Shown here piece by piece: positions 18,100-60,281 of a stretch of 64,000 nt of DNA. The position numbers were made by a program, and so were the translations under genes. Origin of the DNA: Candidatus Magasanikiibacteriota bacterium (GTDB lineage Bacteria > Patescibacteriota > Patescibacteriia > Magasanikbacterales > GWA2-37-8); NCBI GenBank assembly GCA_016189025.1, contig JACPGS010000014.1, positions 16,339 through 80,338 of the forward strand. The letters are read 5' to 3'. Positions within the stretch are counted from its first letter, which is position 1; the number at the start of each line of letters is the position of its first letter. The notes under the pieces are model-generated. The model was not told where the DNA came from. It saw only the letters and a list, made by a program, of their open reading frames with translations, and made no database searches.

Positions 18100-18216
18100 C
18101 ATACTGATCCCACCCACAACGACTTTTATTTTGGATACTACAACCCAGAGAATAAACGCATTGCCTGCTACTTCCCCGAGTAGCACAGGAGGTAAAAAAG
18201 CAGAGGTGTGGATAAG

Positions 18217-24244: not shown

Positions 24245-24248
24245 ACAA

Positions 24249-26334: not shown

Positions 26335-26341
26335 AATGCAA

Positions 26342-26520
26342 CTGTAGAATAATGTTGACGATAATCGTTATCCGCCTGGTCGCTATCGCTATTGCTAAAA
26401 CTCACTTGGTTGGTCGCGGCAGACACTCTTTGGGTGCTCCCCCGACTTTAGATCGGGGTGCGCGCCCAAAGACACTCGTCTGCCGCGCCCTGATGCTAAC
26501 TAGTTATTTTTATTCTTCTC
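26342..26520 (+). repeat. Interspersed repeat family A, copy 2.
   Basis: See 1759-1938; this copy has left TIR ctgtagaataat and right attcttctcc. Confidence 0.8.
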
Positions 26521-26532
26521 CAATATCATAAT

Positions 26533-27534
26533 TTACACTAATGTCCCCGCCCGCAGGCGCAACACAATCTGAATCGCCTCGCGCAGCCACCCGGCAAAGG
26601 CATCGCGCCCCACCTGATCGCGGTAAATGCCGCCGGCAAACTCTTCCAGCCGGAAAGCATCAGCACCTTTGCCCCGGGTGGCTGCCTCGGCCTCTTTAAT
26701 TAATTCAATTAGCGGCCGGGCGCGGGCGCCGGCGGTGTCCACCGCCACCAGTTCTTTATTTTCTCCCAGCATCTTCACCAGCGCCGGGGCCGGCGCCCGG
26801 GCCGCCGCGTCGGGAATTACCAGCGCTACCTGCAGCCGCTCCCGCACCGGCACGCCGCAGGCAATCGCCTGCCAAAAATAATGCGTTAATAATAATTGCT
26901 GGTCGGGAGGGCGCAGATGCGGAAAATAGCGCCAGGCGGCCTGCAGAGTAAGCGCATAAAGCAGCGCCCCGCTCCAGTCGGCCAGCTGCCCCCACCCGCC
27001 GCCGCTCGCGGCCTGCTGTTCCAAGCCGCCCAACAACTGCGGCACCATCAACTCCATTTCCCCACCCTGGAGCACTGCCCGCAAAGTATGGGCAAACACC
27101 GCGTCGTTATAATACTCGATGCCCTCTTCTTCAAACAATATCTGCCGCAGCTCCTCCGGAGTATACGGGGTCAGATCAGTGCGCAACCCCAGCGCCGCAT
27201 GCACTAACATCACCTCCAGCGCCAGGGCGTCGCGCATTTCCTGGCTGGTAGGGTCAGCAATAAAATCGCGCAGCAGCGGCGCCTCAATCAGCCGAATAGT
27301 CTGCTCGTCGGCCGGCCAGTAAGCCGAGTTAACATCGTGCGCGCTCCAGCGCTGGTAAATCGGCTCCAGATATTGCCAAAGCCTGGTCGCCGCCGCGGGG
27401 GCGGTAGCCAGCAGCCGCTCGCGGCCCACAATCAGCTCGCGCCAGACCCGGTCCACCTCGGCGTTGCTTTGGGTAAACCACGCCACCAGCATTAGGTCAA
27501 AAGAAGAGGGCATAAGAAAAAGAATTATCATCAA
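26533..27534 (-). CDS. Hypothetical protein; paralogue of the 28221..29720 protein.
   Basis: A shared block ...AAWRYFPHL...LLLTHYFWQAIACGVPVRERLQVAL... corresponds to ...AAWFDFKIL...LCQHLIWRAISLGVPVETLLKEKLAE... in the 499-aa protein. Confidence 0.4.
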   Translation of the reverse strand: MMIILFLMPSSFDLMLVAWFTQSNAEVDRVWRELIVGRERLLATAPAAATRLWQYLEPIYQRWSAHDVNSAYWPADEQTIRLIEAPLLRDFIADPTSQEMRDALALEVMLVHAALGLRTDLTPYTPEELRQILFEEEGIEYYNDAVFAHTLRAVLQGGEMELMVPQLLGGLEQQAASGGGWGQLADWSGALLYALTLQAAWRYFPHLRPPDQQLLLTHYFWQAIACGVPVRERLQVALVIPDAAARAPAPALVKMLGENKELVAVDTAGARARPLIELIKEAEAATRGKGADAFRLEEFAGGIYRDQVGRDAFAGWLREAIQIVLRLRAGTLV

Positions 27535-28055: not shown

Positions 28056-28060
28056 AAAAA

Positions 28061-29738: not shown

Positions 29739-32700
29739 CTATATCTCGTGAGCGGCAAATTGCTCTTCAATTTCCCGCGCGCCTTTTTCCGGCTTAGGCA
29801 AGGCTGACATTACCTGCGATAATATCACTTCTTTATATTCCCGATCTTCATCCATAAATTCTGTAATCGCCCGGCTATCAGCCTCGTATGCCTCACGGGT
29901 TGCGCCACGATACTTATTTATCCAACTAATCAGTTCTCGCAGGTGGCCAATTTTAGTGCCATCTCCCATCATTAAATTTAATTTGCCGTTCATCGCATCG
30001 GCAAAATTGACGCCAGAATGTTTGGCGAGCAGCGTCATTAAAATCTGGGGCGCCTCCTGTAGGGCCACGGCCCAATCACGCGCGATATCTTTCATGGCTA
30101 TCTGTACTGCCTGCGGACCGTAATGACCGTACTTTTTGCTGGTTAAATCGGAAAACGCATCGCCTACCAACAGACGGCCGTCCTTTTTGCGCGCCTTTTC
30201 CGTAGCTGACAATTTCAGCAGTAAATTTTGGTTGCGCGGGTCCATCCGTTCAATCATAATCTGGCTATTAATGCCGGAAAAAATGGTTCGCATCGCTTCC
30301 GGCACAAAGTGGCTGGCGGTGCCCCAATCTTCATCCATATGGGCCACGCTGTGAATTTTGAGCTTACCCATGCGGTGGGAAGAATCTAGTTTGGCAAATT
30401 CTCCCATCATAAAGCCCATGGCGTTCTTGTACAACTGGCCGCGCGCGAAGCCTTCCTTCATGTCAAAATAGGTATGGCCGCCGTCATCGGCGTGCATGGT
30501 GGCAATAGCCAAATTTTTAAAATCGGTAAGCATTTCAGTCTGATCGGAAAAATCTCTGATGCTTTTAATAAATTTATCTTTAGCCGCAGCGCCTTCCTTG
30601 GCAAATCTCTCGCCAAACGCTTTGACTTCGTTAACCACCCGATCAGTTGCCAAACCAAACTCTTGGCCTAGTTCAACGAGCCCCAGCTCGGTGGCCATCG
30701 CAGTGTAATCCTTCCCGGCTTCCGTGCCCTGCTGAATTTTTTCAGCCAGATCCTGCGCCGCTTCCGAGTAGTCCATTGTCTGGCCGGTGGTCTGTTGAGT
30801 TCGCTCTTGGTGCATTAGCACCGCATTTTCCGACAGCATCAGCTTAGAATCTCCCGCAAACCCCATCAGACGGTGCAGATCATTAGTGGAAAGCCCGGAT
30901 GATTCGCTTTTGACGATTCGAATGCTGCCGTCGCTTTGACGCTCCCCCCACCCCAAATCGTCAACAAAAGCTTGTTCCAGGGCTACGGCTTCGTCGCGGG
31001 CTTTACCGGTGTACTTGCCTTGCTGGTTTTCTCGAATCACGTTATGAATGCGGGCGAGCAAATCATCCGACCACCCGTTGGTAGTAAGATACTTGATATT
31101 GGCCATTAGTTGAGCTTCTAAATCCTTATCGCCTTTGCCTGCCTTTTTCAAGGCGGCGATATGCTTTAACGAACCGATCGCCATAGTTACCGCCTGCTCG
31201 CGCTCCACCCCCTGAAATTGCTCCATGCGCTTCTTGACCCAATTTTTAAAAGCCGAGGTGGGCGTAGACAAACCATATTTTTCGGTAGTCCAAGAGCTTT
31301 CTGCATAATCCTTAGCAGCGGTTTTCTGAATGCCGGTAATGTCTTTATGATAATCCTCCAGCACTTCGGCCAAGGCACCGAGCGCGCCCACGGCCACTGG
31401 CCCTTCGGCTCGTAAATTACGCACCACGGCTTCTACTTTCATGCCTTTCTTAACCGCTTCGAGCGCCTCCCTCATTTTTTCTGCGCCATTCTCAAATATC
31501 TTACCCAGCTTGGCTTGTTTGATTTTTTCCACAAAACTCTTGGCGGCTTTTTCTGCCACTTCGGACAACTGTAATTGGTCAAGCATAGCGCCGAAGGCCG
31601 GTAGCTCAAAGCCAGCCTCTTCCAATTCAGATTCAGCTTGTTTTAGGGTTTGCCCGGAAACCTGCGCGCGCAATTTGCTCTGCCACCAGCGTGCCCCGGA
31701 CGTTACCGTCGACTGTTGTAGCTGTTCCCGACGCGCCTGCCGATCTGCCTCGGCTGCCTGATACGCAGGTACTGCTTTCTCCTTAGCTACTTTCTGTTTA
31801 TAGTCATCAGTCTCAAACCGCTCCTTGGTCTGTTTAACGCCAACCACTTCTTCCGCTCGGCTAATGATTTGTGCCTTGCGACGATTGTGCTCATCAATAA
31901 TATCTTGCACCGTTTTCTCACGCCTCTGTAACTCATCGGCAATAGCCCGCATCGCCCATTCTTCAGAGCTTACCGGCAGTGCTGCCTCTTCTTTTTCTAA
32001 ATCTTCAATGTCTTTCTGTAAATCACCGGCATTTTTAATCGGCCGTCCGGCTTGTTCCGCTTCCAGAGCGAAGGCGGCTTTAGCCTGTGCTTGTTTTAAT
32101 CGTTTTGTCAGTATTGCTTTATTTTCGGCAGTAATGCTCGGATCCGCTAGTGCGGCTTCCCAACCAACAATATCAGTTTTGATTTCAGCTAAATTCTGAA
32201 CCGGCGTGCCAGTCGCGTCCTGCGCTTGCACTTTTAGTAACTCCTCTTGCCGTTTTTCTAACTTTGTTCTAAGCTGGTCACGTCTTTGATACGTTTCATC
32301 TTTAAGAAGCGACGTGTGAGCCTGTTCTAGGCCACGCTTAAATTCAGCTATTTCCTGCTGTGGCCTGGCCAGTGCGGCTTTCTGCTCCTTATCCAGTTGA
32401 GCAAGCGACGTAATTCCAGGCGCCGCCTCGGTGCCAGCTAAAATACGCTCCAAACGCCCCTGTGCTTCTTGCAAACCTTGCTGGGCCTCCCGTTCAGTAT
32501 CAGTCAGACTTTCCTCATCCAATTGCGCCAGTTGCTGTCTGATATTTTCAAGTTCGGCCTTGCCTTCATCAATCAACTGCTGTCGGACAGCGCTCTCTAA
32601 ATCTTTAATATCTTCCTTGACCGTTTCTTGAAGCATCTCCTGTTCCTTAGAGTGCGCCACCGCTAATGACTGTGCGCCGGTTTCGGTAGTAACTGTTGCT

Positions 32701-35105
32701 GTCTTAAGGGCCTCGTCTTTAGCCTCCTCTTTACGTCTTTCATCTTCAGTAGTTAGTGCCCTGGTACGCGCTTCAATAGCAGCCAACTCGGCCAACTCGT
32801 CCTGCCCATGATCCCCCCGATAAAACTCTGTCTCCGCCTCCTTCTTCGCCTCCTTGGCCCGCTCTTCGGCCAGGTGCTCTTCTTTTTCCGCTTCCACCCG
32901 CTCTTTTAGGGTCTTGGCGCCGGCTGTGGTATCCCCAAGGTAAGCGGCTTTTTCGCCGGCTTCCACTGTTTTGAACTGGGCCGCAGCGGTGGCCGCCATT
33001 TCCCGCTGGGCAGTGGTTTCGGCCACGGCCGCCTTTTCGCTGCCCACCGCCAGCTTCACCTTGGCCTCGCCTTCCAAGCGGGCCAGGTTCTGCTTATTGC
33101 GCTCGGCCTGCAACAGATGCTTTTGAATCAAATCCGCCTGGGTCTGCCCCGACTGTTCCACCTTTTTATAGCCAAACCCCTGCCTTTCATACTGCACGCG
33201 TTCGCCCTGCGCCACCCAGGCCCGGCCGATAGACTGAAACTGCTCAGTTTTGGCGGCGCTGCGTTTTTTCTCCTGATCGGCAATTCCCTGCTCCATGCGA
33301 TCCACCGCGTCCACGTCTTCGCCGGCGCCGTATAACTTACCCTGCAACCAGTATTTAGGCACGCCGCGCACCCGGGCGCGCATAATTTCGGCGCGGCGAT
33401 CGGCAAAATTTTTGTTCTTCTCGGCAATTTTTTCGGACTGAATTTCTTTCATGTACCGGCTGTTGGCGCGCTGCAGCAGCACCCCCAGCACCCCACCCTT
33501 AGCCCAGGCGGTTTTCATAGACGCCTCCACCATTTCTTTTTCAAAACCCACGGTCTGCCACCCTTCCGCGTCCGCCACATCCAAACCGACGATGCGCCGA
33601 CTCCCGTCAGCATTCTCCTGAATTCTAGATTTAATCCGCTCTTCCGGAGTCAGCGCCTCGGCGCGGGCGCCCTCCAGCTGGCCGGCGACATATGTTTTTG
33701 CCCGCTTGGCCCAGCTGGGGAAAGGCGTAACGCGGGCGCCCACCTTGGCGAGCCCAATACCGGCTTTTTGCGTAATGCCCTTGCCGCCCTCGTACAGCCA
33801 GCGGCCAAGAGCGTATCCGGAAGCAATGGTCGCCACTTTCTTGCCAAAACTCGCGACGCCGGTTAAGGCCGAGCCGCTGGAGCCCCCGATTTCCGAGGCG
33901 ACTTTGGCGCCGGCAATCAGCATGCCGATGGCAATGGCAAAATTGGCGATGTTGTTCCAGCCCATAGCGTCGCTGATACCCACGCGCTGGCCGCCTAATT
34001 GATCAATCGCGGCAATTTCGCCGGTTTTAATTTTTGAGGTTTCCGGAATGTCGGAATAATATGCCAGCTCCTCGGCCGGGGTGCGCTGGGCACTGCCCAC
34101 GGTAACAAACGACAACCAGATAAAAAACATTAAGACCGGGCCCGTAACCAGGCGGTCGCCGAGCTCGCGCCACCATTTGCCGGCAAAGCTGGCGGTGGTA
34201 GGCAGCACCGAGAGCACAAAAGCAAAGGGCGAGAGCACGATTAATACCCATAGGCCGATGAGGCGGGCGACCAGAATAAACAAATAAATTCCCATTACTG
34301 CCATGGCCATGCCGGCAAACACCACGGCGCCGAGGCTCGCCGTAAAGATGCCGGGCGAGGCTAATTGCGCCGGCTGGGCCGCGTTGTGGAGCTTAACGAT
34401 TTTTTCCAGGTTAAAAGCATTAATGAGGTTGCCGCCGGCGGTGGCCACCACGCCGTTAACGAAAGTGGTCATTACCAGCTGGGAAATGTCTATCAGGACG
34501 CCGATAATCAGCCGGCTGAAGTTGACGAGAATGGCGGCAATGGCAAACTTGGCAATCATTTTTTTCCACTCGTACTGCTCTATGCCGAGGATGGTGCCGA
34601 AGGCCATTAAGAGCAGCACCAATACAAAAAACATGTTGGTGATATCGCGCACCATTACCCAGCCGACATTAACCGCCGTGGCGTCCAGGTACCCGTTGTA
34701 GGCGGCAATTTCAATAATGAAAGTGAGGATGAAAAGAGTGAGTTTGATGAAAAAAGTGGCGACGGTCAAGAGAATTGAAGCAAACAGCCCGGTCCACCAG
34801 TCCCAGGTAAAAATCATGCCGGTAGACCAAAAATTGAACGAACCCGGGTTATCGCCCAGATTGCCGCCGCCTTGTTCCACGATATTAGTACCACCCTGAG
34901 CAGCATTCTTGGTGGCAATATCTAGGGCGCTCTTGGAAGCCCTGGCATCAAAGTCGGAATTGTCAGGAAGGTTTCCTACTGCCAAAACAGGCACGACAAT
35001 CAGTAACGCTACGACCGTAGTGATCGTCACTAACACCGCCCGCCGTTTGGCGAAAAACTTACGTAGAGCGTGGAACGTGGAACGCATAAGCCGATTGCTG
35101 ATCAC
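29739..35105 (-). CDS. Giant (1788 aa) polytopic membrane protein with a roughly 600-aa coiled-coil region; candidate VirB6/TrbL-like channel component fused to a long extracellular or periplasmic extension.
   Basis: Residues about 1-450 contain more than 8 hydrophobic helices (FASILLTVATFFIKLTLFILTFIIEIAAY..., VLVLLLMAFGTILGI..., AMAVMGIYLFILVARLIGLWVLIVLSPFAFVLSVL...). Residues about 560-1150 are E/K/A/Q-rich with heptad-like periodicity. A large globular C-terminal region follows. Confidence 0.6.
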   Translation of the reverse strand: MISNRLMRSTFHALRKFFAKRRAVLVTITTVVALLIVVPVLAVGNLPDNSDFDARASKSALDIATKNAAQGGTNIVEQGGGNLGDNPGSFNFWSTGMIFTWDWWTGLFASILLTVATFFIKLTLFILTFIIEIAAYNGYLDATAVNVGWVMVRDITNMFFVLVLLLMAFGTILGIEQYEWKKMIAKFAIAAILVNFSRLIIGVLIDISQLVMTTFVNGVVATAGGNLINAFNLEKIVKLHNAAQPAQLASPGIFTASLGAVVFAGMAMAVMGIYLFILVARLIGLWVLIVLSPFAFVLSVLPTTASFAGKWWRELGDRLVTGPVLMFFIWLSFVTVGSAQRTPAEELAYYSDIPETSKIKTGEIAAIDQLGGQRVGISDAMGWNNIANFAIAIGMLIAGAKVASEIGGSSGSALTGVASFGKKVATIASGYALGRWLYEGGKGITQKAGIGLAKVGARVTPFPSWAKRAKTYVAGQLEGARAEALTPEERIKSRIQENADGSRRIVGLDVADAEGWQTVGFEKEMVEASMKTAWAKGGVLGVLLQRANSRYMKEIQSEKIAEKNKNFADRRAEIMRARVRGVPKYWLQGKLYGAGEDVDAVDRMEQGIADQEKKRSAAKTEQFQSIGRAWVAQGERVQYERQGFGYKKVEQSGQTQADLIQKHLLQAERNKQNLARLEGEAKVKLAVGSEKAAVAETTAQREMAATAAAQFKTVEAGEKAAYLGDTTAGAKTLKERVEAEKEEHLAEERAKEAKKEAETEFYRGDHGQDELAELAAIEARTRALTTEDERRKEEAKDEALKTATVTTETGAQSLAVAHSKEQEMLQETVKEDIKDLESAVRQQLIDEGKAELENIRQQLAQLDEESLTDTEREAQQGLQEAQGRLERILAGTEAAPGITSLAQLDKEQKAALARPQQEIAEFKRGLEQAHTSLLKDETYQRRDQLRTKLEKRQEELLKVQAQDATGTPVQNLAEIKTDIVGWEAALADPSITAENKAILTKRLKQAQAKAAFALEAEQAGRPIKNAGDLQKDIEDLEKEEAALPVSSEEWAMRAIADELQRREKTVQDIIDEHNRRKAQIISRAEEVVGVKQTKERFETDDYKQKVAKEKAVPAYQAAEADRQARREQLQQSTVTSGARWWQSKLRAQVSGQTLKQAESELEEAGFELPAFGAMLDQLQLSEVAEKAAKSFVEKIKQAKLGKIFENGAEKMREALEAVKKGMKVEAVVRNLRAEGPVAVGALGALAEVLEDYHKDITGIQKTAAKDYAESSWTTEKYGLSTPTSAFKNWVKKRMEQFQGVEREQAVTMAIGSLKHIAALKKAGKGDKDLEAQLMANIKYLTTNGWSDDLLARIHNVIRENQQGKYTGKARDEAVALEQAFVDDLGWGERQSDGSIRIVKSESSGLSTNDLHRLMGFAGDSKLMLSENAVLMHQERTQQTTGQTMDYSEAAQDLAEKIQQGTEAGKDYTAMATELGLVELGQEFGLATDRVVNEVKAFGERFAKEGAAAKDKFIKSIRDFSDQTEMLTDFKNLAIATMHADDGGHTYFDMKEGFARGQLYKNAMGFMMGEFAKLDSSHRMGKLKIHSVAHMDEDWGTASHFVPEAMRTIFSGINSQIMIERMDPRNQNLLLKLSATEKARKKDGRLLVGDAFSDLTSKKYGHYGPQAVQIAMKDIARDWAVALQEAPQILMTLLAKHSGVNFADAMNGKLNLMMGDGTKIGHLRELISWINKYRGATREAYEADSRAITEFMDEDREYKEVILSQVMSALPKPEKGAREIEEQFAAHEI

Positions 35106-35139: not shown

Positions 35140-38100
35140 TCACTGGCTCGGGGCGACGATTACATTGCCCTGGAACGTGGTCCAGGCGCCCGAAGTGGGC
35201 GAATTATCCTGGCACTCCTCTCGGTAACAGCCCAGGTTGCGGCCCGCGGAATCGGTGCGGCCGCAATTGCCGTTGCACCAGCCCCAGTTGTCGGTTAACT
35301 GCACCCGGGGGCGATAGATGCAGCAGCCGCCCGGCAACCCGGCGGCCCGGCAGCGGCTGTCGTTCGGCAGCCAGTTAAGGTTGCCGGCGTCCGCCGCACA
35401 CTGGTAAACATGCTCAAACTGGAAAAAGGCGTTGTCGCAGGTAGCGCCTTCCTGGCGGTCAAAAGTCGGCGCCTGGCCGGCCTCCACGCACCAGCGGGCC
35501 GGGCCGCAGGAACCGTTTAGTTGCGTGCAGCTCTGCCCGCCGACCGTGCAGCGCAGGCCCGAGGAGCAGGTGGGCGTCGGTTGATTGGGTAGCGGAGGGC
35601 AGGCCTGGTCCGTGGTACAGACATCGCCTTTCTGGCCGTTGATATCGCAATACTTGGTGGACGGCACGCTGCAGGGCGTACGCGGTCGGTTTGAATCGTT
35701 GTCAAAAAACGGGCAATCGGAATTGTCGCTCGCGGTACACGCAATGCTCCGGTCGTCGCGGCAGCGGCCTTCGGTTTCCCTGATACTGCACTGGTAGTGC
35801 TGCAGCTGGCCCTGACAATCAGCATCCGCTGAACAGGTGCGGCCGTTTACCGCCGGATCGCCCTGGCAGACGCGGGCGCCTTGCCGGCAGATATCCTCAA
35901 TTTTCCCGCGCTGATTGCGGTACTGACCGGCGTAGCGGATAACGCGGCCGTCGCCCCAGTCCACGGCCACGCCGCGCAAGGGCATTTGGTTGGAATCAGC
36001 CGCCCCAAAAAAGCGCAGCACGGCGGTGCGGTTGGCGGCGCCGGAAATTTTGGCGGTGCTGGTAACGCCGTTAACCGTAAACACATCGCGGCTGGTGGGC
36101 CCTTCAAAACAATCGTCCGCGGCATCGCACCGGAACGGCGCCCATAACTGGGGCCGCTGCGGGGCGACGCCCACTGTATTACCATCATGCAGGTCGCCGG
36201 TGGCCGTATAATCGTAGACAAAGTCGGCAAACAGACTGCCCGCGGTCGCAATCCGCTCATCAGTAACTTGGTAGCCGGTATAACCAGAGGCAGTGGAGGC
36301 AGGCGTTAGGTCAAAACGGAAAATGCGTTTGACCGCGGCAAAAATCTGGCCTAGATTATTGCGGCCTTCCGGCGCCAGGTATTCTCCGGCCGCAGTCTTA
36401 ACAGTAACCAGCTTGCCTTGCTGTTCTTCGCTGCGGGTACAGATGCGGGAGCCGGCGGCGTCGGCACAACTGTAGGGCGCGCCAATGGAGGCCTGCGGGT
36501 CGAGAATCCAGTAGCGGCATTCTTCCAGTCCCCCCGAAGGGCAGCGGCAGGTGGCCGGCAGATTAGTGCGCTCCACCAGACCGCTGCAAGGGCGCCCCAC
36601 CTGCCCCGCTTCCGAGGGCAACGAGAAAGGCGTCAGAATTACCGGGCTCGCCAGCCCCTCGGGAGAATTGGCGTCCAGGCTGCCAAACGGGCTAAACGGC
36701 GTATTCACATTATAGTTAAGGTTGGTTTTACCGGCGCTGGAAGTAAATCTTAAAGCCTGAATAGGGAACTGGCGTAATTTATTCCAAAGGCGATTCGTCC
36801 AGGGCGCGGTTTCGGGTGCGGCATAATCCACCTTGGCTTCGGCAATCGCCCGGCACCATTCGCGCAAATGAAAAGTAACTTTATAATCAATCCCGCCGCT
36901 GTCCGGAGAATCATCGCAAAAAGAGAAGTCGTAGCCGAGAAAAGCCCGCGTTTCAAGGTCAAAACGCACCTTAATGGCATGCCAATTGCCGTTGCCGCGA
37001 TTAGCGCCGGGACAGCTGCTGCTCTGCCAGGGGTCGCCGATAATCCGGGTAAAAATATTGCCGCTTAAATCACCGCACCGGCCGCCCGCCAAAGGAAAGC
37101 ATACCTGGCCGTCTTCCTTAACATAGGTGTCGGCGGTATTGCCTTGCACCAGCTGACTGCCGTACATCAGCACCAGCTGGTGGGACTGGCCCAGGAAGCG
37201 CCCAGCCACGGCGTAACCTAACTGCCAATCCCCATCTTCCTTGTTTTTCGGCTTTACTTTATAACTGGCCTGCTGGGTAGCCGGATCATTGGGCCAGATT
37301 TCAAAAATCGTGCCTGGCGCCGGATCTTCCGGGCCCGAACTTACCACCTGGAAAGTGATTTTTTCAATATCGGTCTGGATAATTTTCGCTTCTTCGGTGC
37401 TGCTGTCCGGCGGCAGGGGATTAACGGCAAACTGATTGGTAGAAATAGACAAGTGAGGGCGCGTCACAAAACTATGGCCGCCTTGCGCGTCCGCGCCGCC
37501 GCTGCTGTTGAGGCAATAAAAAGTGCCGCCGCGCTCCGGATTCTGGTAGCCGGCCTCGGCATGCTGGTTGTTGATATCCAGAGCGCCCTGCAGGGTATCC
37601 ACCGGCCACCAGGTAAGGCAGGGGTGAGTTTTAGGATCATTATTCAGCGGGCGGCTTTGGTCGTACTCCAGGCAATACCCGCGCCAGCCGATGCGCTTGT
37701 CTTCGCGGGTTAAGCGCTGGCAGGTGCCGTCCGGCGTGGCGCCGGGCCGCGGCGCGCAGTCCGCGTTAGTAGCGCAAACTTTGCCGGCCTGGGTGCCGCC
37801 TTCGCACAAAGCCGGCGGCACGCCCTTGGGTCCGGGGAGGGTAGCGCCGGCGCGGGGCAAGGGATTGGCGCTGTTAGGAGCGCGATAATTCCAGAATTTA
37901 GTGGTGAGGTCGCCGTACTGAACCCGGGTATAATCGCATTCACAAGCCAAAGCAGTGGGACCAGCAGCAGACGGGCCGGATTCCTGGCAGCGCTTGACGC
38001 CGTTGAACAGGGGCGCGTCAACCAGCGACAGCGTATTGGGGAACGGCGCATCTTCTTCCGGATAAGCGCGGCAGGTCAGGCGTTCCGCTGCTGCGGTATT

Positions 38101-41100
38101 GTCCCTGGCAGGGGCGATACACACGCCATTGGTACAGACGCCCGACCCGTCGGCTCCGCAGGGAGCGCCGTCTGGATTGCAGCTGTAAACTGCCGGGCCA
38201 GCGGTGGTCGGCACCCGTCTCACCAGCCGCCAGTCGGCCGGGGCGCTGGGGGGCGCGATATTCATCTGCCAGAGCTCTTCGGGAGGCGGCAGCCCCAAAA
38301 GCGAATATCCAGAATATTCCTGATTCCGCCAGCCTACCCCGCGTTTAACATAATCGGCGACAGTTAAGGCCGGGGTAGCGCCTTTGTTCTCCACCCAGTT
38401 GCCGCAATTAGTGAGGTCGCCCGGCTCGGTCGCCGGCGCCGCGGTATTGCAACGCCCTACTTCGTCGCATACTTCCCGCCAACGGGAAGTGGTCTGATCC
38501 CACACCCGGTGCGAGGAGCGGCACTGCAGCCACTCGCCGCATTCGCGGTCAGGCGCTACTTTAATGATGATGTTGGCATCGTTCTTGTTGCTGGCTGGCT
38601 CGGGCGGAACTAGCCGGCCGTCGTTGCGGTCGGATTTGCGGTAACTCGCCGCCGTATTCCACAGCTTGGCGGGGTTCGCTGTTTCGTCAAACAGGGCGCA
38701 GCCGTTTTTCAGACTCACTTCGCCGCTGCAGTCGTTTTTGTTGACCTTGTCGTTATTAAGGAAGTACCAGGGCCGGTTATTGTCGTTGCGGTCCACAAAT
38801 TCGCTACAGCCGGCTTCGGCCGCCGGACATTCGCCGACAAACCCGGCGTAAGTATTAACGTCGCCGGCCGACCACAAGCCATAGGAGCCGTCGGCCAAAG
38901 TATAATTGGGGTAACACGCGCGATCTTGGTTACACTTGTTGCCGGCGCCGCAGGCGGCATCGCTCGCGCAAATCTTAGTGGCATCGTTATCGCAGACCTT
39001 AACCCCGCTCCAGTACCAGCCGGCGCGGATGCCCTTATCCGGTACCGCCGGGCGATAAGCGCAAATCCGGTTGCCCTGCACGGCCGGATCTTTGGCATAA
39101 GTAGTGCCGCCCCTGGCGTCCAAGAGCGCGCTGCACCCCACCGCTTCGCTTTGGCAGAGCGCTTCGCGGTAGAGGGCAGGGTCGTTCTTAATCAGCGTGT
39201 CCTCAAACTGCGTGCCCGCTGCCGCCGGCACTAGAGCGCCAGCCGCGGTACAGCCGCGATCCGGCTCGCGGCAGATGGTTTCCTGATTATTTACCAGATA
39301 CCACGGCGTGGTGCTGGGCGTATCCGCGGGCAGATATACCGAGGAGGGGGTTAGTTGCGGACGCACCGCGGCGCCATTAATTTCTCCTTGGGCAGTTAAA
39401 ATGCCGGGCTCTACATCGCGCACGTCTACATAACAGCCCGGCTCCCCGGCCGGCACGGCGCAGGTGACCGGCGTGCGGCCGTCCGGGGCCGCCAGATCGC
39501 GGCCGTTAATGGTCAGCTTAAGAGTGCCGGGGCCGTTGCCTGGCAACCAGACGCGATACACCTGCGGGCCCTGGTCGGCTTCCGTCACCCGCCCGCCGGT
39601 CAGGGTGTTATAAGTATCCAAAACCGCAGTGCAGCCGATGGCCGCCTCGCGGCAGAGGAAGCTAAAATTAGTGAGGTTTTCGCTGCGGCCGTCCGCCGCC
39701 GTGTAGGCGCGACAGCCAAGAGCCTCGCCGGGCAGATTATCTTCCGGGTGAGAATCGCAGGCCGCCGGGATAGTGAGGGAATTTTTTAAGCGATAAAGAT
39801 AATCGCTCACTTCGGTGAGCTGGACATTGTCAATAAAGAACTGGCCGGGCGAAGCGGGATTAAAGAAAAGATACGCGCTGGTGGTGGCGCCGGTAAAAAT
39901 AACCGGGCCGTAGCGATAATACTGCCAGGCGTCGCCTAACCCGCGGCTCTCTAGAGTGGTATCAAAATTGCCGTCCGCATCCACCAGACGCACCGAGAGA
40001 TTCCCCCCGCTGCCTTTGGCCCAAAAGGTGAGGGTATAGCTTTCGCCCAGGCGCAGCGCTTCGCTATCAGTCAGACGGCGAATCAGCACCCCGCCGGCGC
40101 CGGAGACGGTAAGCGACTGTTCGTTGGCATGGGTGGATTCGGACGACAGCGCATAATTGGTGGCGCCGGCCGGCGCGCTCCAGGCCGGCAGATCCGCGGT
40201 GGTAGTAACGCCTTCAAAGGTATCGGTAAAAATCTGGCGCACGCGGTTGCCGCGCGGCCCCTTGTACTCGCGGCAGGATTCGGCCGCGGCGCTGCAGCTG
40301 GCGCTCGCGCCGGCGTTAGTCAAGACGCCGCCGGGCAGCCCGCGGTAATAGCAAAAGCCGTCGCGATATTCGCCGCCGCTGTAACACAATTCGCACCGGC
40401 CGCTCGCTAGCTCCCATTTGCCGCTTTCCGCCGCACACTCGGCAGCGCCAAACTCGCACCGCCCGTTATTCCACCGGCCGTGGCGGAGCGTGCAGGCCGC
40501 TTGGGTAGCCGCCCCGCTGACCAGCGCGGTGTACAGCTCCGGCGCGTCCAGCCGGTAATCGGTGCAGGAATTGGATACGGGAATAGTTTGGGCGAGCAGG
40601 CGATAATAAACCCGGCCTTGGTCATCGTTAAACTGCCGGCAATCTGCGTCCGCCTGTCCTGCTTGGTAGAGAGCCGCCGTGCATTTTTGCTCAAACCCAG
40701 CTAGTTCCTCTAGGGTGCGATAGAAATACTTGGGACCACCGCTGCCATCCGTTGCCAGAGTGTAAACGCGCAACTGGAATCCGGCTTGGGCGGTACCTTC
40801 AAACACCGTAAAATTCTTTTCTTTAGTTTTGGGGGTAGCGGGGTCCGGCAGCTGGCAAGGACGCAGCCTGGTAAAGTATTCCACCTGTTCAGCGCGACCC
40901 TCACTGACATTAGTAAAGGCGCGGCAGCCTTTTTCTTCGGCGCGGCACTCTTTGGCCAGATCCGGAATTAAATACGCCAGCGGCTCCCCGGCCGAATAAT
41001 CGCTTTCGGTTTCGCGATAAGCGTCATACCCCACGCACTGCGCCTCACAGCGGTCGCCGCTCACCACCTTGCCCGGAATCCGCTCGCCGGTTTCTTTGGC

Positions 41101-43305
41101 GGTGTACACCGCACAGCCCACTTCGTCGGGAATACAGGCCGGCGCATACTGCCCGCAGGCAGCCGGGGCGCCCGCGGCCAGGCGGTTCAAATCCGCCGGA
41201 TTTTCCGGCCACTGAATACCCGGGGCGGTGCGGTCAGCATCATAGCACCCCAGGTAATCGGGCGCTTTGCGCAAATTCAGCAAATCTCCGGCCGGGTCAG
41301 CGGCGGCCACAAACGCGGTGCAGCCCGCGGAGCGAGCGCCGCAGGTGGAAGCGGCCGGCAATTTAGCGTTAAAGTACACCGCATCCGAAGCAAAACCCAA
41401 AGCAGCGTCCGGCGTACTAGGCAGCTGCCACTTGCCGCTCGCATCCTGGCGCAGGCTGTAAGCGCGGCAGCCGACTGCCGCTTCGCTGCAGGAGCGGGTA
41501 TCCAGGGTGCGGGAGAGATAAGAAACTTCTTTCCCGCCTGACTGATAAGTCTGGCAGGTGCGATTTTCCGCCCGGCAGGTATCGGCATTAAATTTCCAGG
41601 CATTCTTCTCCCGCGCGCAATAGGCAAAAGTAGCGCAGGTTTTGTTATCCGGGGCATAAGCCACGCAGGTAGAGAGGTCGGCGCATTCGGTGAGGCGGGT
41701 CGGCACATCGCGCCCCAGATGCAGGGCCCCCGGCCCCAGGGCATTGCAGCGCGCCGGCGGCGCCTTGATTACCCAATCCGGATCAATCAGATGGCAATAG
41801 GGGAAGCGCGCCGGGTCGGGGCGCACGCCGGTAATCTCCCCGGCCGGATTGCGGATAAAGTCGCAGTCATTAAAGCCTTTCACTACGTCGCCCAAAATCC
41901 AGGGGCGATCCGGGTTGCTGTTCGCGGCGGCAATCTCAAAGCCCAGGGGCAGTATCCGCGCCTGGCGCAATACTTTAATGTTGCTGTAACAATAAGCATT
42001 CTGGCAGAATTGTTTTAAGTCGGCGTTCTCGGTCACCCGGCTCCCGGGAATCAGTTTGCGGTCAGCGTGCAGCCAGCCGCGCGCCAAGGCCGAAGCAACG
42101 GTAACGGTTTCACCGCCCGCCGCGTTCTGTAGCGCCAGCAAAAGGTCGTTGTCGGCGCGGCAGTTATAGGTGCCGCTCCCCTCGCAGTTGCCGAGCTCGG
42201 CAATTAAATCATAGCTTTCTTTGGCGCCAAGCTCCACTGCCAGAAATGAGCTGAATAATTCCTGGGCCGCGCGCCGGCCTCCCACGGCCCCGCCGGCTTC
42301 AAATTGCTGGGCAGCAGCCCCGGCGCCGAGACAATTTTGGCTGCCGTCGCGGCAGCCGCTGCCAAAGGGCAGAATACCCTTTTCCTGGTAATTTTTTACC
42401 ATCGTAGAAACCAGGGTATTCAGGAAAATTCCCAACACATTGGGAATGACCCTGATTTCGCCGGAAGTAAGGAGCGCCCGCACCTGCTCTTCGTCGCTTT
42501 CGCCTTGTTTGCTGGGGATGATGTTTTCAAATCCTTTTTGAATTAGCGCCGCCGGATTGGTAATCTGGTTGGAGATCAACGTGGTCTTAGCTAAAAAGCC
42601 TTTGCCTTCCTCGCGCTGCTTATCGGCCCCGGCCACTTTATTGCGAATCAGCTGATCAATTTTTTGGGTAGTTTTTAAATGAATGCCAAAATCGGTCTGG
42701 GATAATTCCAGATTGGCGCTGAATCTTTCGGCCAGCGATTCTTCGCTGTATTTGCTCCGCCAGGCATCGCCGCTAAACCACTCGCTGGTAAACTGCGAAA
42801 AACTGCACTTGCCTTTGAGCGGCGATCCCGGCTCGGCGCCGGGGACATCTTCAAAACCGGTGCGCAAACCAATGCGCAGCGCCAGATTAACCTTAACATC
42901 AGGAATCTGGCAGATATTTTCCACGCCAAACGCACTCCCTAGCTGTTCAATGCCGGCCCCCAGGGCGTCATCACCCACCTGCTTCAGATAATCGCCAAAT
43001 CCTTTAGTGAAAGCGAGCGGGCTTTGGCCCTTGCCCCCCGCGGCCAGCCACACGGCCGAGTCATAAGCGAATTTGCGCAGGGCATAAGCCACCACCCGGC
43101 TGGTGGCGGTGAGCACCGCGGCCTTCAAGCCGGCATAAATCTGATTGATGATCTTATTGGTGGTATCGGGAATGCTGCCGGTGATAAAAGCCGGCAAGCC
43201 TTGCGCCTGCGCCGGCGCCGGAATAAGCAGGGTGCCGGCGAGCGAAGTGGCAGCCAGCAATACCGCCAAAAGCCCGAGACTGAATTTTTGCCAGGGTTTA
43301 GGCAT
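35140..43305 (-). CDS. Giant (2721 aa) secreted cysteine-rich surface protein with a lectin/CBM-like beta-sandwich segment.
   Basis: The signal peptide MPKPWQKFSLGLLAVLLAATSLAGTLLIPAPAQAQG and many Cys clusters throughout are present. The segment ...LTFWAKGSGGNLSVRLVDADGNFD...FFNPASPGQFFIDNVQLTEV resembles carbohydrate-binding beta-sandwich modules. The gene is about 65% GC. Confidence 0.65.
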   Translation of the reverse strand: MPKPWQKFSLGLLAVLLAATSLAGTLLIPAPAQAQGLPAFITGSIPDTTNKIINQIYAGLKAAVLTATSRVVAYALRKFAYDSAVWLAAGGKGQSPLAFTKGFGDYLKQVGDDALGAGIEQLGSAFGVENICQIPDVKVNLALRIGLRTGFEDVPGAEPGSPLKGKCSFSQFTSEWFSGDAWRSKYSEESLAERFSANLELSQTDFGIHLKTTQKIDQLIRNKVAGADKQREEGKGFLAKTTLISNQITNPAALIQKGFENIIPSKQGESDEEQVRALLTSGEIRVIPNVLGIFLNTLVSTMVKNYQEKGILPFGSGCRDGSQNCLGAGAAAQQFEAGGAVGGRRAAQELFSSFLAVELGAKESYDLIAELGNCEGSGTYNCRADNDLLLALQNAAGGETVTVASALARGWLHADRKLIPGSRVTENADLKQFCQNAYCYSNIKVLRQARILPLGFEIAAANSNPDRPWILGDVVKGFNDCDFIRNPAGEITGVRPDPARFPYCHLIDPDWVIKAPPARCNALGPGALHLGRDVPTRLTECADLSTCVAYAPDNKTCATFAYCAREKNAWKFNADTCRAENRTCQTYQSGGKEVSYLSRTLDTRSCSEAAVGCRAYSLRQDASGKWQLPSTPDAALGFASDAVYFNAKLPAASTCGARSAGCTAFVAAADPAGDLLNLRKAPDYLGCYDADRTAPGIQWPENPADLNRLAAGAPAACGQYAPACIPDEVGCAVYTAKETGERIPGKVVSGDRCEAQCVGYDAYRETESDYSAGEPLAYLIPDLAKECRAEEKGCRAFTNVSEGRAEQVEYFTRLRPCQLPDPATPKTKEKNFTVFEGTAQAGFQLRVYTLATDGSGGPKYFYRTLEELAGFEQKCTAALYQAGQADADCRQFNDDQGRVYYRLLAQTIPVSNSCTDYRLDAPELYTALVSGAATQAACTLRHGRWNNGRCEFGAAECAAESGKWELASGRCELCYSGGEYRDGFCYYRGLPGGVLTNAGASASCSAAAESCREYKGPRGNRVRQIFTDTFEGVTTTADLPAWSAPAGATNYALSSESTHANEQSLTVSGAGGVLIRRLTDSEALRLGESYTLTFWAKGSGGNLSVRLVDADGNFDTTLESRGLGDAWQYYRYGPVIFTGATTSAYLFFNPASPGQFFIDNVQLTEVSDYLYRLKNSLTIPAACDSHPEDNLPGEALGCRAYTAADGRSENLTNFSFLCREAAIGCTAVLDTYNTLTGGRVTEADQGPQVYRVWLPGNGPGTLKLTINGRDLAAPDGRTPVTCAVPAGEPGCYVDVRDVEPGILTAQGEINGAAVRPQLTPSSVYLPADTPSTTPWYLVNNQETICREPDRGCTAAGALVPAAAGTQFEDTLIKNDPALYREALCQSEAVGCSALLDARGGTTYAKDPAVQGNRICAYRPAVPDKGIRAGWYWSGVKVCDNDATKICASDAACGAGNKCNQDRACYPNYTLADGSYGLWSAGDVNTYAGFVGECPAAEAGCSEFVDRNDNNRPWYFLNNDKVNKNDCSGEVSLKNGCALFDETANPAKLWNTAASYRKSDRNDGRLVPPEPASNKNDANIIIKVAPDRECGEWLQCRSSHRVWDQTTSRWREVCDEVGRCNTAAPATEPGDLTNCGNWVENKGATPALTVADYVKRGVGWRNQEYSGYSLLGLPPPEELWQMNIAPPSAPADWRLVRRVPTTAGPAVYSCNPDGAPCGADGSGVCTNGVCIAPARDNTAAAERLTCRAYPEEDAPFPNTLSLVDAPLFNGVKRCQESGPSAAGPTALACECDYTRVQYGDLTTKFWNYRAPNSANPLPRAGATLPGPKGVPPALCEGGTQAGKVCATNADCAPRPGATPDGTCQRLTREDKRIGWRGYCLEYDQSRPLNNDPKTHPCLTWWPVDTLQGALDINNQHAEAGYQNPERGGTFYCLNSSGGADAQGGHSFVTRPHLSISTNQFAVNPLPPDSSTEEAKIIQTDIEKITFQVVSSGPEDPAPGTIFEIWPNDPATQQASYKVKPKNKEDGDWQLGYAVAGRFLGQSHQLVLMYGSQLVQGNTADTYVKEDGQVCFPLAGGRCGDLSGNIFTRIIGDPWQSSSCPGANRGNGNWHAIKVRFDLETRAFLGYDFSFCDDSPDSGGIDYKVTFHLREWCRAIAEAKVDYAAPETAPWTNRLWNKLRQFPIQALRFTSSAGKTNLNYNVNTPFSPFGSLDANSPEGLASPVILTPFSLPSEAGQVGRPCSGLVERTNLPATCRCPSGGLEECRYWILDPQASIGAPYSCADAAGSRICTRSEEQQGKLVTVKTAAGEYLAPEGRNNLGQIFAAVKRIFRFDLTPASTASGYTGYQVTDERIATAGSLFADFVYDYTATGDLHDGNTVGVAPQRPQLWAPFRCDAADDCFEGPTSRDVFTVNGVTSTAKISGAANRTAVLRFFGAADSNQMPLRGVAVDWGDGRVIRYAGQYRNQRGKIEDICRQGARVCQGDPAVNGRTCSADADCQGQLQHYQCSIRETEGRCRDDRSIACTASDNSDCPFFDNDSNRPRTPCSVPSTKYCDINGQKGDVCTTDQACPPLPNQPTPTCSSGLRCTVGGQSCTQLNGSCGPARWCVEAGQAPTFDRQEGATCDNAFFQFEHVYQCAADAGNLNWLPNDSRCRAAGLPGGCCIYRPRVQLTDNWGWCNGNCGRTDSAGRNLGCYREECQDNSPTSGAWTTFQGNVIVAPSQ

Positions 43306-43310: not shown

Positions 43311-43958
43311 TTACCGCCGGGTTGCGGGAGCGATCAGGGCGGGCAGATTCGCAAAGGGACTACTCGTGCTCATCAGTTCTCTAACCAGGGCAATGAGCGT
43401 CGCATCATCCACCTGATTTAATACTTCCTCGCTGGTGCCGGTTTCGCGCAGCAGCTGGCGCAGCGCCTTGGGGTCGGCGAGCAGCGCCGCCAAATCCAGG
43501 GACGGCGCGGCAAGGGCCGCCGCTCCTCCCGGCAGAATATTTTCCGCCGTGGCAGTGGCGCTAGCGCGCGGCACTGCGCCGCCGCTGACCACTAGATTGG
43601 AACAGTCTTGACCCCTAGGGCACAGCGGCAACCCTTGGGCCACTACCTCCGCATCGGAGAATCCATAGCTGAACGTGTCGTAAAGATAAGGACTGGTGCC
43701 GTAAACATACAATTCTTCAAAATCAGACAAGGTATCGCGATCCGTATCCCGAAAGCGCAGGGCATCGGTGCTTTGTACCGAGTGGCGCACCGTTGCCGGC
43801 ACGTCGTTGGTTAAGGCAAACGGCGCGTACATGGTATTGCGAATCTGCAGCGCGCCCAGCCCCACGGTAAAAATCGCAAAAACGCTAAGCAGAACGACGC
43901 CGATTTGCCGTTCGCGGGAAATGGTGGCCGGACGTTCTGCTTCCATGAAATATAACAA
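43311..43958 (-). CDS. Hypothetical membrane-anchored protein with an EF-hand-like calcium-binding loop.
   Basis: TM helix IGVVLLSVFAIFTVGLGALQI and the loop DTDRDTLSDFEE (D-x-D-x-D-x-x-x-D-x-x-E pattern). It is the first gene of the operon that continues into the two giant genes. Confidence 0.4.
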   Translation of the reverse strand: MLYFMEAERPATISRERQIGVVLLSVFAIFTVGLGALQIRNTMYAPFALTNDVPATVRHSVQSTDALRFRDTDRDTLSDFEELYVYGTSPYLYDTFSYGFSDAEVVAQGLPLCPRGQDCSNLVVSGGAVPRASATATAENILPGGAAALAAPSLDLAALLADPKALRQLLRETGTSEEVLNQVDDATLIALVRELMSTSSPFANLPALIAPATRR

Positions 43959-46133: not shown

Positions 46134-46142
46134 ATTTTGAAA

Positions 46143-60276: not shown

Positions 60277-60281
60277 ACTTG

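Follow-up and report, generated by a model that had tools for sequence, protein, structure and literature searches.

The window analysed here, a stretch of 64,000 nucleotides, contains at 35140..43305 on the minus strand a gene for a secreted, disulfide-rich protein of 2721 aa (about 300 kDa), which is a conserved orthologue across uncultured Magasanikbacteria and some sister Patescibacteria. The family comprised 113 full-length homologues and 1305 cluster representatives at E ≤ 1e-3. Those at E ≤ 1e-30 (1050) were all about 2500–3300 aa long and aligned in the same register. With clusters defined at 50% identity, the family spans more than 1000 of them, and no literature on it was found.

This Sec-exported protein, apparently locked by disulfide bonds, may well be the rigid outward arm used by the Patescibacterial T4SS for contact or adhesion, a reading in which we place middling confidence and whose T4SS part is suggested by gene order and synteny. 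Given its conservation and its usual adjacency to T4SS genes, the protein is a candidate for the outer, host-touching part of this system. The giant gene takes 8.2 kb of a genome that, as is general in Patescibacteria, probably measures about 1 Mb; this, together with the number of clusters and the linkage to a VirB6-like gene in most genomes, makes it a concrete, testable host-contact candidate. Even if the T4SS link were only inherited synteny, this would still be a large, wholly unannotated family worth naming.

Reading frame and base composition

The giant gene starts with ATG and its frame is unbroken, a single ORF whose product is 100% identical to a deposited NCBI hypothetical protein (HYV42_02205) from a Candidatus Magasanikbacteria MAG. 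The other ORFs inside its interval, found on both strands, are 102–155 aa long; as the giant gene recurs in more than 1000 clusters, the best interpretation is that they are its shadow ORFs, in agreement with the original prediction.

The same prediction had set the gene apart by a GC content of about 65%, far above that of its neighbours. The measured value was 60.5%, with 1-kb windows between 0.55 and 0.64, and 6 of the 42 other ORFs in the window were richer in GC; the composition of the giant gene thus fits the local distribution. Genes of about 40% GC do occur (27690-29720, 18329-18991 and 19900-20835), but these are the outliers and not the giant gene. GC3 was 0.685, within one standard deviation of the mean of the neighbours (0.615 ± 0.092). 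From the amino-acid composition and the codon usage of the neighbours a GC content of 0.585 was predicted, the pooled value being 0.546, and amino-acid composition explained two thirds of the GC excess. This excess is located in codon position 2 (0.528), because the protein is rich in Ala, Gly, Pro, Cys and Arg. Horizontal acquisition of a gene foreign in composition, which the earlier GC argument implied, would agree with the difference between 60.5% in the gene and 54.6% in the whole window, but not with the ordinary GC3, the GC-richer ORFs or the contribution of amino-acid composition, and the syntenic slot of the gene is shared by orthologues in at least 77 species. Foreign origin was rejected on the codon-position analysis, the composition-expected GC and this conserved slot, and it is considered extremely improbable. 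The GC content of the giant gene is ordinary, not anomalous.

Cysteine pattern and domain content

The protein begins with a signal peptide at aa 1-35 (43201..43305; MPKPWQKF, a hydrophobic core, then PAPAQA followed by Q), which is its sole hydrophobic segment. The basic n-region, the hydrophobic core and the PAxAQ site are kept across the family, and secretion is well supported by this conserved Sec signal peptide.

Rather than the hundreds of cysteines initially announced, the giant protein has 120 (4.4%). Their recurring short spacings were confirmed, with 30 adjacent gaps of 6-7 residues (C-x5/6-C) compared with 8.3 ± 2.7 in 5000 shuffles, among which the highest count was 21. Cys is the most conserved residue of the family (mean conservation 0.80), and 89 of the 120 are more than 80% conserved. 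Homologues contained from 88 to 166 Cys, in an even number in 103 of 106 cases (p = 5e-27), and variable Cys were gained and lost pairwise. Therefore, essentially all Cys appear to be disulfide-paired, and the earlier description of the protein as disulfide-stabilised is well supported; from conservation and parity, the fold is predicted to be locked by about 60 disulfide bonds. A gene for a disulfide-forming enzyme was not found within the 64-kb window, and a DsbA-like gene lay near the locus only in L168, being absent from the window and the other loci. With 45-80 predicted disulfide bonds per chain, the family would stand out among bacteria for its extreme use of disulfides. Since these minimal cells come from largely anoxic groundwater habitats, the question is raised of how oxidative folding is done.

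Comparison of 20 segments of the protein with each other, profile against profile, gave similarities of up to 80% probability over only 12-50 columns. The hypothesis of tandem repeats was rejected, as a short hairpin motif was recovered and no repeated domains. The recurring unit is a hairpin of 12-25 residues (C-x5-GC-x-A-Y). In its short recurrent Cys spacings, in the conservation of Cys above all other residues and in their pairwise gain and loss, the protein resembles eukaryote-style ectodomains of the EGF, TNFR or furin type, but no profile or fold match to these was obtained, and the hairpin is set in unique sequence instead of a tandem domain array.

After the signal peptide, an N-terminal low-Cys region (aa 36-360, 42226..43200) shows conservation of 0.35-0.5 and the conserved motifs RKxAYDSAVWLASGGKGQ and KGILPFG. 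AF2 predicted long helices here with pLDDT below 50, confidence being poor for aa 30-360, and no Pfam or PDB match was found for aa 36-360. The following alpha/beta domain (aa 364-530, 41716..42216) contains the most conserved blocks of the protein (LPLGFEIAA, FCHLIDPNW) and is its most confidently folded part, with pLDDT of 73-93; Foldseek against PDB gave no match with E < 0.2. Cys-rich region 1 (aa 531-1020, 40246..41715) carries the recurring disulfide-hairpin motif, C-x5-GC-x-[AE]-[YF], at aa 606, 655, 724, 787 and 1004, with invariant Cys. The AF2 model of aa 30-1020 had a pLDDT of 60.7 and a best Foldseek match to PDB at E = 0.23. In addition, a search with the N-terminal domain alone against a database of 5.8 billion proteins returned three fragments and no new architectures.

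A predicted beta-sandwich of the CBM_4_9 type was located at aa ~1025-1160 (39826..40233; FWAKGSGGNLSV...FFIDNVQLTEV) by Pfam and family-profile matches. The CBM- or lectin-like signature proposed for this stretch was borne out in that FWAKG...FFIDNV gives a match of the CBM_4_9 type (PF02018). Of 18 family members, 13 matched (E ≤ 0.01, best 1e-6), but the giant protein itself scored 23.3 bits (E = 9e-5), below the gathering threshold of 25.9 bits. When searched singly against PDB sequences the giant protein had no match, and the family profile matched CBMs only, namely the solved CBM4/16/22 structures 2zex, 1gui and 3jxs at E of about 4e-6, from an endoglucanase, a laminarinase and a xylanase. 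The match to CBM family 4/9 covers about 135 aa; unlike the usual modules of that family, this one makes up 5% of its protein and has no recognisable glycoside hydrolase attached.

CBM4/9 modules usually accompany glycoside hydrolases, and the structures matched belong to such enzymes. A secreted carbohydrate-active or wall-degrading enzyme would then use the CBM to target host polysaccharide, with catalysis in aa 364-530 or in another Pfam-dark part. The conservation and confident folding of aa 364-530 agree with such an activity, as do the scarcity of VirB1-type hydrolases, mostly missing near virB4 in Patescibacteria (PMC12102498), and the link of Omnitrophota giant genes to wall degradation (bioRxiv 10.1101/2023.11.21.568195). 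Nevertheless, none of the 18 members examined with Pfam has a hydrolase family, the model matches no enzyme fold and no obvious catalytic motif was identified, which makes an enzyme improbable.

Cys-rich region 2 (aa 1180-1931, 37513..39768) contains further C-x5-GC hairpins, at aa 1218, 1345, 1384, 1493 and 1526, and small knotted modules; none of 18 members has a Pfam domain there. The variable beta-rich region (aa 1935-2400, 36106..37503) shows the lowest conservation in the family (identity 0.15-0.24, occupancy 0.5-0.7) and consists mostly of beta strands in the AF2 model, with weak, non-significant structure matches to jelly rolls and lectins. The C-terminal region (aa 2401-2721, 35143..36105) combines lineage-specific Cys-knot inserts at aa 2473-2606 with the motif FFAxADxNQMPLRxxxVDWGDG, the conserved motif CCxFxPxVQVxDNWGWCNG and the tail [FW]xGx[IV]I[VL]AP, and conservation across the family extends to the extreme C-terminus. 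The AF2 model of aa 1900-2721 (pLDDT 72.2, pTM 0.72) gave non-significant matches, against PDB at best E = 6e-3 with a probability of 0.11 (GH16 and legume-lectin jelly rolls) and against BFVD at best 8.5e-3. By eye, the VDWGDG...VQVxDNWGW motifs resemble PKD, a lead only, because Pfam gives no support. LPxTG was absent from the last 60 aa of all 106 family members, and the giant protein has no C-terminal TM or hydrophobic segment.

Apart from the CBM, no match for the family was obtained in Pfam (18 members), NCBIfam (0 families) or PDB, and Pfam at E ≤ 1 on sub-regions of the protein and on neighbour genes gave nothing useful. Neither a known adhesin domain nor an anchor motif nor homology to a T4SS subunit was found in the giant protein; profile homology to catalogued subunits (VirB1-B11, PrgA-L, Trs, CD41x) was sought in NCBIfam, Pfam and PDB. 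In the 18 members, Pfam detected no polymer-adhesin domain (GbpC/antigen I/II-like). RTX and Big repeats were likewise absent from these members; with a Sec signal present and no tandem array, the protein does not show the features of RTX/T1SS giant adhesins.

Linkage to T4SS genes

Directly downstream, 34 nt from the stop of the giant gene and also on the minus strand, starts the gene of a VirB6-like polytopic membrane protein (29739..35105) with multiple predicted TM segments in a TM domain at aa ~20-440 and a Cys-free coiled-coil extension of about 1300 aa. It has a weak CD3337/EF1877 match, and its homologues carry PF19590 (TrbL_3). On the same strand follow two conserved genes without a family match, of 323 and 333 aa (25363..27534), and those of a PrgI/VirB3-like protein (24932..25360; PF12666, E = 2.4e-12), a TrsD/TraC-like protein corresponding to a stand-alone VirB4 N-terminal part (24249..24935; NCBIfam TrsD, E = 7e-8; PF26593 in orthologues) and a VirB4-type T4SS ATPase (22388..24244; NF045971, 343.9 bits for a cutoff of 325; Pfam P-loop_TraG). 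The distal end (20914..22187, minus strand) encodes ComF and a single-TM protein of 198 aa, as profile and TM searches showed. A VirD4/T4CP-like coupling protein is encoded 7 kb beyond the VirB4 gene on the plus strand (12904..15483; Pfam T4SS-DNA_transf and TrwB_AAD_bind). The cluster headed by the VirB6-like gene, with PrgI, TrsD, VirB4 and ComF, is of the monoderm type (MPF-FATA-like). Where VirB6-like loci extend far enough, almost all have a homologue of the 323-aa gene immediately upstream of PrgI. In the literature, comF is common in T4SS loci of class ABY1 (PMC12102498), and that survey describes most Patescibacterial T4SS clusters as lacking a relaxase. The one species tested, a Southlakia, needs its T4SS for epibiotic growth, and the role of the system in Patescibacteria is described as completely unknown (PMC12102498, PMC11665869, PMC12857230).

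On the other side, the gene of a small partner of about 211-215 aa with one TM helix (43311..43958, minus strand) has its stop codon 5 nt before the ATG of the giant gene. Its sequence shows a thrombospondin-type-3-like acidic motif (DTDRDTLSDFEE), a Cys pair and an Ala/Leu-rich tail, and orthologues gave a faint TSP3_bac match. The 5-nt and 34-nt gaps contain no terminator-like site. The spacing fits an operon, in which the giant gene appears to share a transcript with the gene of the small partner and, in the majority of genomes, also with that of the VirB6-like channel subunit.

The linkage was determined in both directions. Among 56 species loci, 30 have the VirB6-like gene no more than 3 kb downstream of the giant gene; five further cases, slightly farther away or with a split ORF, bring this to about 35 (~62%). 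Conversely, the giant gene was present in 36 of 48 metagenome loci with a VirB6-like homologue (75%), directly upstream in 33. The two were apart in about 19-21 of the 56 forward loci and 12 of the 48 reverse loci. The same gene order was kept in distant relatives at 24-28% identity (L086, L168). Two more distant VirB6-like loci (L169, L170) have no homologous giant gene; therefore, the arrangement is not shared by all Patescibacteria.

Sua5, DUF4015 and KsgA make up a housekeeping neighbourhood with strong synteny in the clade, so the adjacency of the giant gene to T4SS genes could be inherited and not functional. KsgA has been reported near virB4 in many Patescibacteria (PMC12102498). The giant protein might then be a general envelope or surface-layer scaffold of Magasanikbacteria, for example a structural protein associated with the wall or S-layer, or a protective coat, and its place beside the T4SS genes would reflect inherited synteny around ksgA. 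Its most constant neighbours are not T4SS genes but KsgA (in 76 of 85 loci) and the single-TM partner (directly upstream in 77 of 85). L004 and L087 retain the giant gene with no T4SS genes beside it, T4SS clusters lack it upstream in the 12 reverse loci, and its lineage-wide conservation is like that of a housekeeping surface component. On the other hand, the two-way linkage survives in the distant relatives, even though the order of most other genes differs there, and SLH and other wall-binding domains were absent from 18 members (Pfam). Rapid evolution in a third of the protein is also more in line with partner recognition than with a uniform scaffold. Such a scaffold is possible, although less probable than a contact arm.

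Adjacency to T4SS genes could also indicate cargo, a toxin or an effector delivered by this system, or a polymorphic-toxin-like protein, for which the variable aa 1935-2400 and the lineage-specific inserts would form the variable C-terminal part. However, the signal peptide is a classical Sec one, so exit would be by Sec and not via cytoplasmic T4SS entry, and 300 kDa with 60 disulfides is implausible for a translocation substrate. Polymorphic toxins vary at the extreme C-terminus, which is conserved here, Rhs/YD matches were absent from 18 members, and no toxin/immunity gene pattern was seen, the downstream gene being VirB6-like. Delivery as an effector is thus very unlikely.

Possible roles at the cell surface

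A surface adhesin for host contact, as originally proposed, is plausible, with the CBM-type domain and the conserved T4SS linkage as indirect support. The giant protein would be exported by Sec, folded oxidatively and retained at the cell surface, held by the upstream membrane partner and/or the T4SS membrane complex, to serve as a rigid outward arm of the T4SS. The CBM4/9-type and other beta-sandwich modules may bind envelope glycans of the host or partner cell, and the fast-diverging C-terminal third could set partner specificity. The protein would thereby supply the contact function given by PrgB-type adhesins or pili in other T4SSs.

PrgB-type adhesins are Cys-poor. A close parallel is PrgB (aggregation substance) of pCF10, also a large secreted surface protein whose gene lies in one transcription unit with a monoderm MPF-FATA-type T4SS. 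In pCF10, PrgH, PrgI and PrgJ correspond to VirB6, VirB3 and VirB4, and the proposed role of the surface protein is cell-cell contact via envelope-polymer binding (PMC12857230). In contrast, the giant protein has no sequence or domain homology to PrgB and lacks both a polymer-adhesin domain and an LPxTG sortase anchor. It is twice as large, with about 60 predicted disulfides, and the T4SS here is chromosomal. A survey of T4SSs in Patescibacteria found no PrgB homologue or adhesin (PMC12102498).

Beyond an adhesin, the giant protein, anchored by the small membrane partner, could be the extracellular conduit or stalk of the monoderm T4SS, which we regard as unlikely. The rigid, disulfide-braced stalk would let the VirB6 channel span both wall and S-layer and reach the envelope of a host cell, and Magasanikbacteria might exchange DNA, nucleotides or proteins with the host through or along it. 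If true, this would be a structural T4SS component without counterpart in any described system.

Omnitrophota giant proteins offer another comparison, being very large and secreted, from ultra-small and probably host-dependent bacteria, and encoded beside a secretion or pilus apparatus (bioRxiv 10.1101/2023.11.21.568195). They belong to another lineage, however, with a T2SS/T4P-like apparatus; they are an order of magnitude larger, with recognisable domains and no Cys-rich architecture, and no homology to them was found. Finally, the VirB6-like neighbour, polytopic with a very long hydrophilic extension, resembles the extended VirB6 paralogues of Rickettsiales and other extended VirB6 proteins (PMC12857230, PMC7648143), although its extension is a Cys-free coiled coil and its system of the monoderm type; this likeness concerns the neighbour and not the giant protein.

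Reading frame and domain anatomy

The giant gene (35140-43305, minus strand) is one ORF of 2721 codons starting with ATG, and its product is 100% identical to the NCBI entry HYV42_02205, a 'hypothetical protein' from a Candidatus Magasanikbacteria MAG. Since the ORF is uninterrupted and an identical protein had been deposited, the gene has been called independently and its frame is unbroken. The giant ORF of the original prediction is thus real and not a pseudogene, and the 102-155-aa ORFs overlapping it on both strands are shadow ORFs, as proposed there for the antisense ones. The predicted signal peptide (aa 1-35) is also confirmed, being of the typical Sec type (MPKPWQKF, a hydrophobic core and PAPAQA). 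It is the only hydrophobic segment of the protein, and relatives keep it as KK-hydrophobic-PAxAQ.

It is followed by a low-Cys region (aa 36-360) with the strongly conserved motifs RKxAYDSAVWLASGGKGQ and KGILPFG, for which long helices are predicted at pLDDT <50, and by an alpha/beta domain (aa 364-530) with the highest conservation and the best prediction in the protein (pLDDT 73-93). A Cys-rich beta region with putative disulfide hairpins (aa 531-1020) precedes a CBM4/9-type module (aa ~1025-1160), a second Cys-rich region (aa 1180-1931) and a fast-evolving beta-rich region (aa 1935-2400, identity 0.15-0.24). In the C-terminal region (aa 2401-2721), the motifs FFAxADxNQMPLR-VDWGDG and CCxFxPxVQVxDNWGWCNG are conserved, the Cys-knot inserts are lineage-specific, and the conserved tail reads [FW]xGx[IV]I[VL]AP. 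This tail occupies the last ~10 residues family-wide (35143-35190, minus strand) with no TM segment after it, and we know of no sorting signal that resembles it. An LPxTG motif was found in 0 of 106 family members, and the C-terminus of the giant protein lacks a membrane segment. When 20 segments were compared profile against profile, no tandem domain array emerged; a short hairpin motif alone recurs.

The FWAKG...FFIDNV stretch, originally taken as a CBM/lectin-like beta-sandwich, scored 23.3 bits against Pfam CBM_4_9, just below the threshold of 25.9. This sub-threshold match is backed by its presence in 13 of 18 homologues and by matches of the family profile to solved CBMs of endoglucanase, laminarinase and xylanase (E ~4e-6), and the module is probably real. 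With ~135 aa, it is the only part of the protein that probably belongs to a known family; in the 18 members tested, no other Pfam, NCBIfam or PDB family was matched. That the protein is a secreted hydrolase of glycans or walls, not recognised as such and directed to its target by this CBM, is improbable.

Cysteine pairing and base composition

The giant protein has 120 Cys (4.4%), not the hundreds originally stated, while the recurring short spacings hold: gaps of 6-7 residues between adjacent Cys number 30, against 8.3±2.7 (maximum 21) in 5000 shuffles, and the motif C-x5-GC-x-[AE]-[YF] is present at least ten times. Across 106 aligned sequences, no residue is better conserved than Cys (mean identity 0.80, with Tyr next at 0.60, then Trp at 0.55), and 89 of the 120 are kept in >80% of members. 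Mature chains carry 88 to 166 Cys, an even number in 103 of the 106 proteins (binomial p=5e-27), and variable Cys are gained or lost in pairs (e.g., 318/325, 938/971, 2240/2263, 2652/2661, 2677/2698 and 2681/2693). Since counts are even and changes pairwise, the proposed disulfide stabilisation is supported by sequence statistics; their simplest reading is that essentially all Cys would be disulfide-bonded, with about 60 bonds in the giant protein. As judged from its sequence, the protein is Sec-exported with its Cys paired. In the Parcubacteria MAG PKTK01 of a distant relative, a DsbA/Thioredoxin_4 gene (locus L168, 18989-19729) lies downstream of the giant gene, among type IV secretion genes, which fits a need for oxidative folding. 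No DsbA-like homologue was found by tblastn in the window, nor in the remaining loci.

The GC content of the giant gene was measured as 60.5%, lower than the ~65% first reported, and 6 of the 42 other ORFs of the window exceed it. GC3 is 0.685 versus 0.615±0.092 in the other ORFs. The protein's amino acids, if encoded with the codon usage seen in the rest of the window's ORFs, would give 58.5%, the pooled background being 54.6%. The excess sits at codon position 2 (0.528), reflecting a protein rich in Ala, Gly, Pro, Arg and Cys. The claimed GC contrast is therefore not meaningful: the composition matches the local distribution, and the compositional claim fails by the refutation test set in the original prediction. 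A foreign origin of the gene is refuted, its probability being negligible.

The true compositional outliers are low-GC genes (~40-45%) at 27690-29720 (minus), 18329-18991 (plus), 19900-20835 (minus) and 59644-60893 (minus), which may be recent insertions. They comprise an NYN fragment and a 499-aa ORF inside a cluster of type IV secretion system (T4SS) genes, a second NYN gene adjoining tRNA-Gln (18029-18100), and a Fic gene along with two small ORFs. A 48-aa motif is common to the 499-aa ORF and a 333-aa gene of the cluster.

The neighbouring T4SS cluster

The giant gene is the second in a tight minus-strand gene series leading into the T4SS cluster, a context overlooked in the original prediction. 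Directly upstream, the gene of a small membrane protein, the partner (43311-43958, minus strand), has its stop codon 5 nt ahead of the giant ATG; the product (~215 aa) combines a single TM helix with a thrombospondin-type-3-like acidic motif, a Cys pair and a tail rich in Ala and Leu. Downstream, the gene of a 1788-aa protein (29739-35105, minus strand) starts 34 nt past the stop of the giant gene, and this gap contains no terminator-like site. The protein is putatively VirB6-like, as suggested by a weak CD3337/EF1877 match and by PF19590 (TrbL_3) in its homologues. Its N-terminal 440 aa are polytopic with several predicted TM segments, the remaining ~1300 aa are a charged coiled-coil extension, and it contains zero Cys. 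Its orthologues have only 589-1074 aa; with its long extension, it is reminiscent of 'extended VirB6' proteins from Rickettsiales.

Two conserved genes without assigned family lie between the VirB6-like gene and PrgI/VirB3 (PF12666, E=2e-12). VirB4 is encoded in two parts (22388-24935, minus strand), a TrsD/TraC-like protein of 228 aa and an ATPase of 618 aa (NF045971, 343.9 bits, over its cutoff), and is followed by a 198-aa single-TM protein and ComF. A VirD4/T4CP-like coupling protein (12904-15483, plus strand) is found 7 kb past VirB4, and a type IV pilin and PilM (832-1305 and 1962-3215, minus strand) at the window's left end. The cluster matches the published Patescibacterial T4SS, which is MPF-FATA-like, chromosomal and usually without a relaxase, with a VirB4 generally split, TrsD and PrgI adjoining VirB4, KsgA often close, and comF in class ABY1 loci (PMC12102498). 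No PrgB-like adhesin was detected for these systems, and the giant gene is not mentioned (PMC12102498).

Family, linkage and proposed role

A word-indexed search gave 113 homologues, nearly all of 2500-3150 aa and alignable full-length at 30-45% identity; those with names are Magasanikbacteria or 'Patescibacteria group'. An exhaustive HMMER scan with aa 364-1563 returned 1305 cluster representatives at 50% identity, 1050 of them at E<=1e-30. The top 150 have about 2500-3300 aa, with a shorter minority (~1400-2350 aa), and most whole-length matches share register. At least 250 loci were found with one genome per GTDB species. The protein, conserved lineage-wide in sequence and length and carrying one carbohydrate-binding-type module by homology, represents a large, dark family that is entirely unannotated. 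It falls in no catalogued T4SS subunit, S-layer/SLH, RTX or polymorphic-toxin family. Many species-representative MAGs with a Magasanikbacteria-type locus (L006-L085) are titled 'uncultured Gammaproteobacteria bacterium', which looks like a placeholder or wrong label.

In 77 of 85 loci the partner immediately precedes the giant gene, and KsgA is present in 76; most of the missing cases are explained by absent upstream sequence. A DUF4015 putative glycosyl hydrolase (44976-46163, minus strand) belongs to the conserved Sua5-DUF4015-KsgA-partner-giant series in 53 of the 85. In the forward direction, 56 species loci reach 2.5 kb or more past the giant ORF. The VirB6-like TM domain starts within 3 kb in 30 of them; in 5 more it is slightly farther or the giant ORF is split, and in 2 it is upstream. 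In the reverse direction, a metagenome scan with the VirB6-like TM alignment gave 270 relatives. Of the 48 loci examined that had 3 kb or more of upstream sequence, 36 carry the giant gene, which lies immediately upstream in the same orientation in 33 and downstream in 3; p323 (a 323-aa cluster gene), PrgI, TrsD and VirB4 come next in nearly all loci reaching that far. Gene order is kept around two distant relatives, one of 3533 aa (L086; 26% identity, with 23% of the query aligned) and one of 2560 aa and 78 Cys in the 'Parcubacteria' MAG (L168; 24-28% identity). The giant gene is thus preferentially linked, in operon-like fashion, to the membrane partner and the VirB6-like gene. It was not upstream at 12 of the 48 T4SS loci, no T4SS genes were found within 10 kb at L004 and L087, and no homologue was found at the more remote VirB6-like loci L169 and L170. 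That the protein is an envelope scaffold, its T4SS adjacency being inherited synteny, is a rather doubtful alternative.

The giant protein is best classed as a putative giant surface protein linked to a secretion system, and the adhesin originally proposed is partly supported and sharpened by this linkage. With gene order as the basis of the functional link, we give about an even chance to the reading that it would remain on the cell surface and make contact as the outward-pointing arm of the T4SS; its N-terminal two thirds, which are conserved, would be the rigid scaffold, and partner specificity would come from the variable third at the C-terminus. The family is a testable candidate for the extracellular part of an essential-type Patescibacterial T4SS. 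A cargo or toxin of the T4SS is very improbable, since the Sec signal, size, disulfides and conserved C-terminus speak against it. The closest working likeness to the proposed contact arm is PrgB, among the Gram-positive T4SS surface adhesins replacing pili (PMC12857230), although the protein shares with that family its operon location and no other membership feature. Omnitrophota giant secreted proteins, also beside secretion-system clusters, are a loose parallel (bioRxiv 10.1101/2023.11.21.568195).

Elsewhere in the window, a sigma-70-like protein (9673-11826, minus strand) is unusually long (717 aa), and a Peptidase_C39_2-like protein (17135-17983, plus strand) adjoins DnaX. Leucyl-tRNA synthetase (60906-63989, minus strand) has two insertions between the editing domain and the catalytic/anticodon-binding parts, a NUDIX domain at aa 206-328 and, at aa 424-609, a domain of the serine-hydrolase/alpha-beta-hydrolase type; the L086 relative is a plain 784-aa enzyme.
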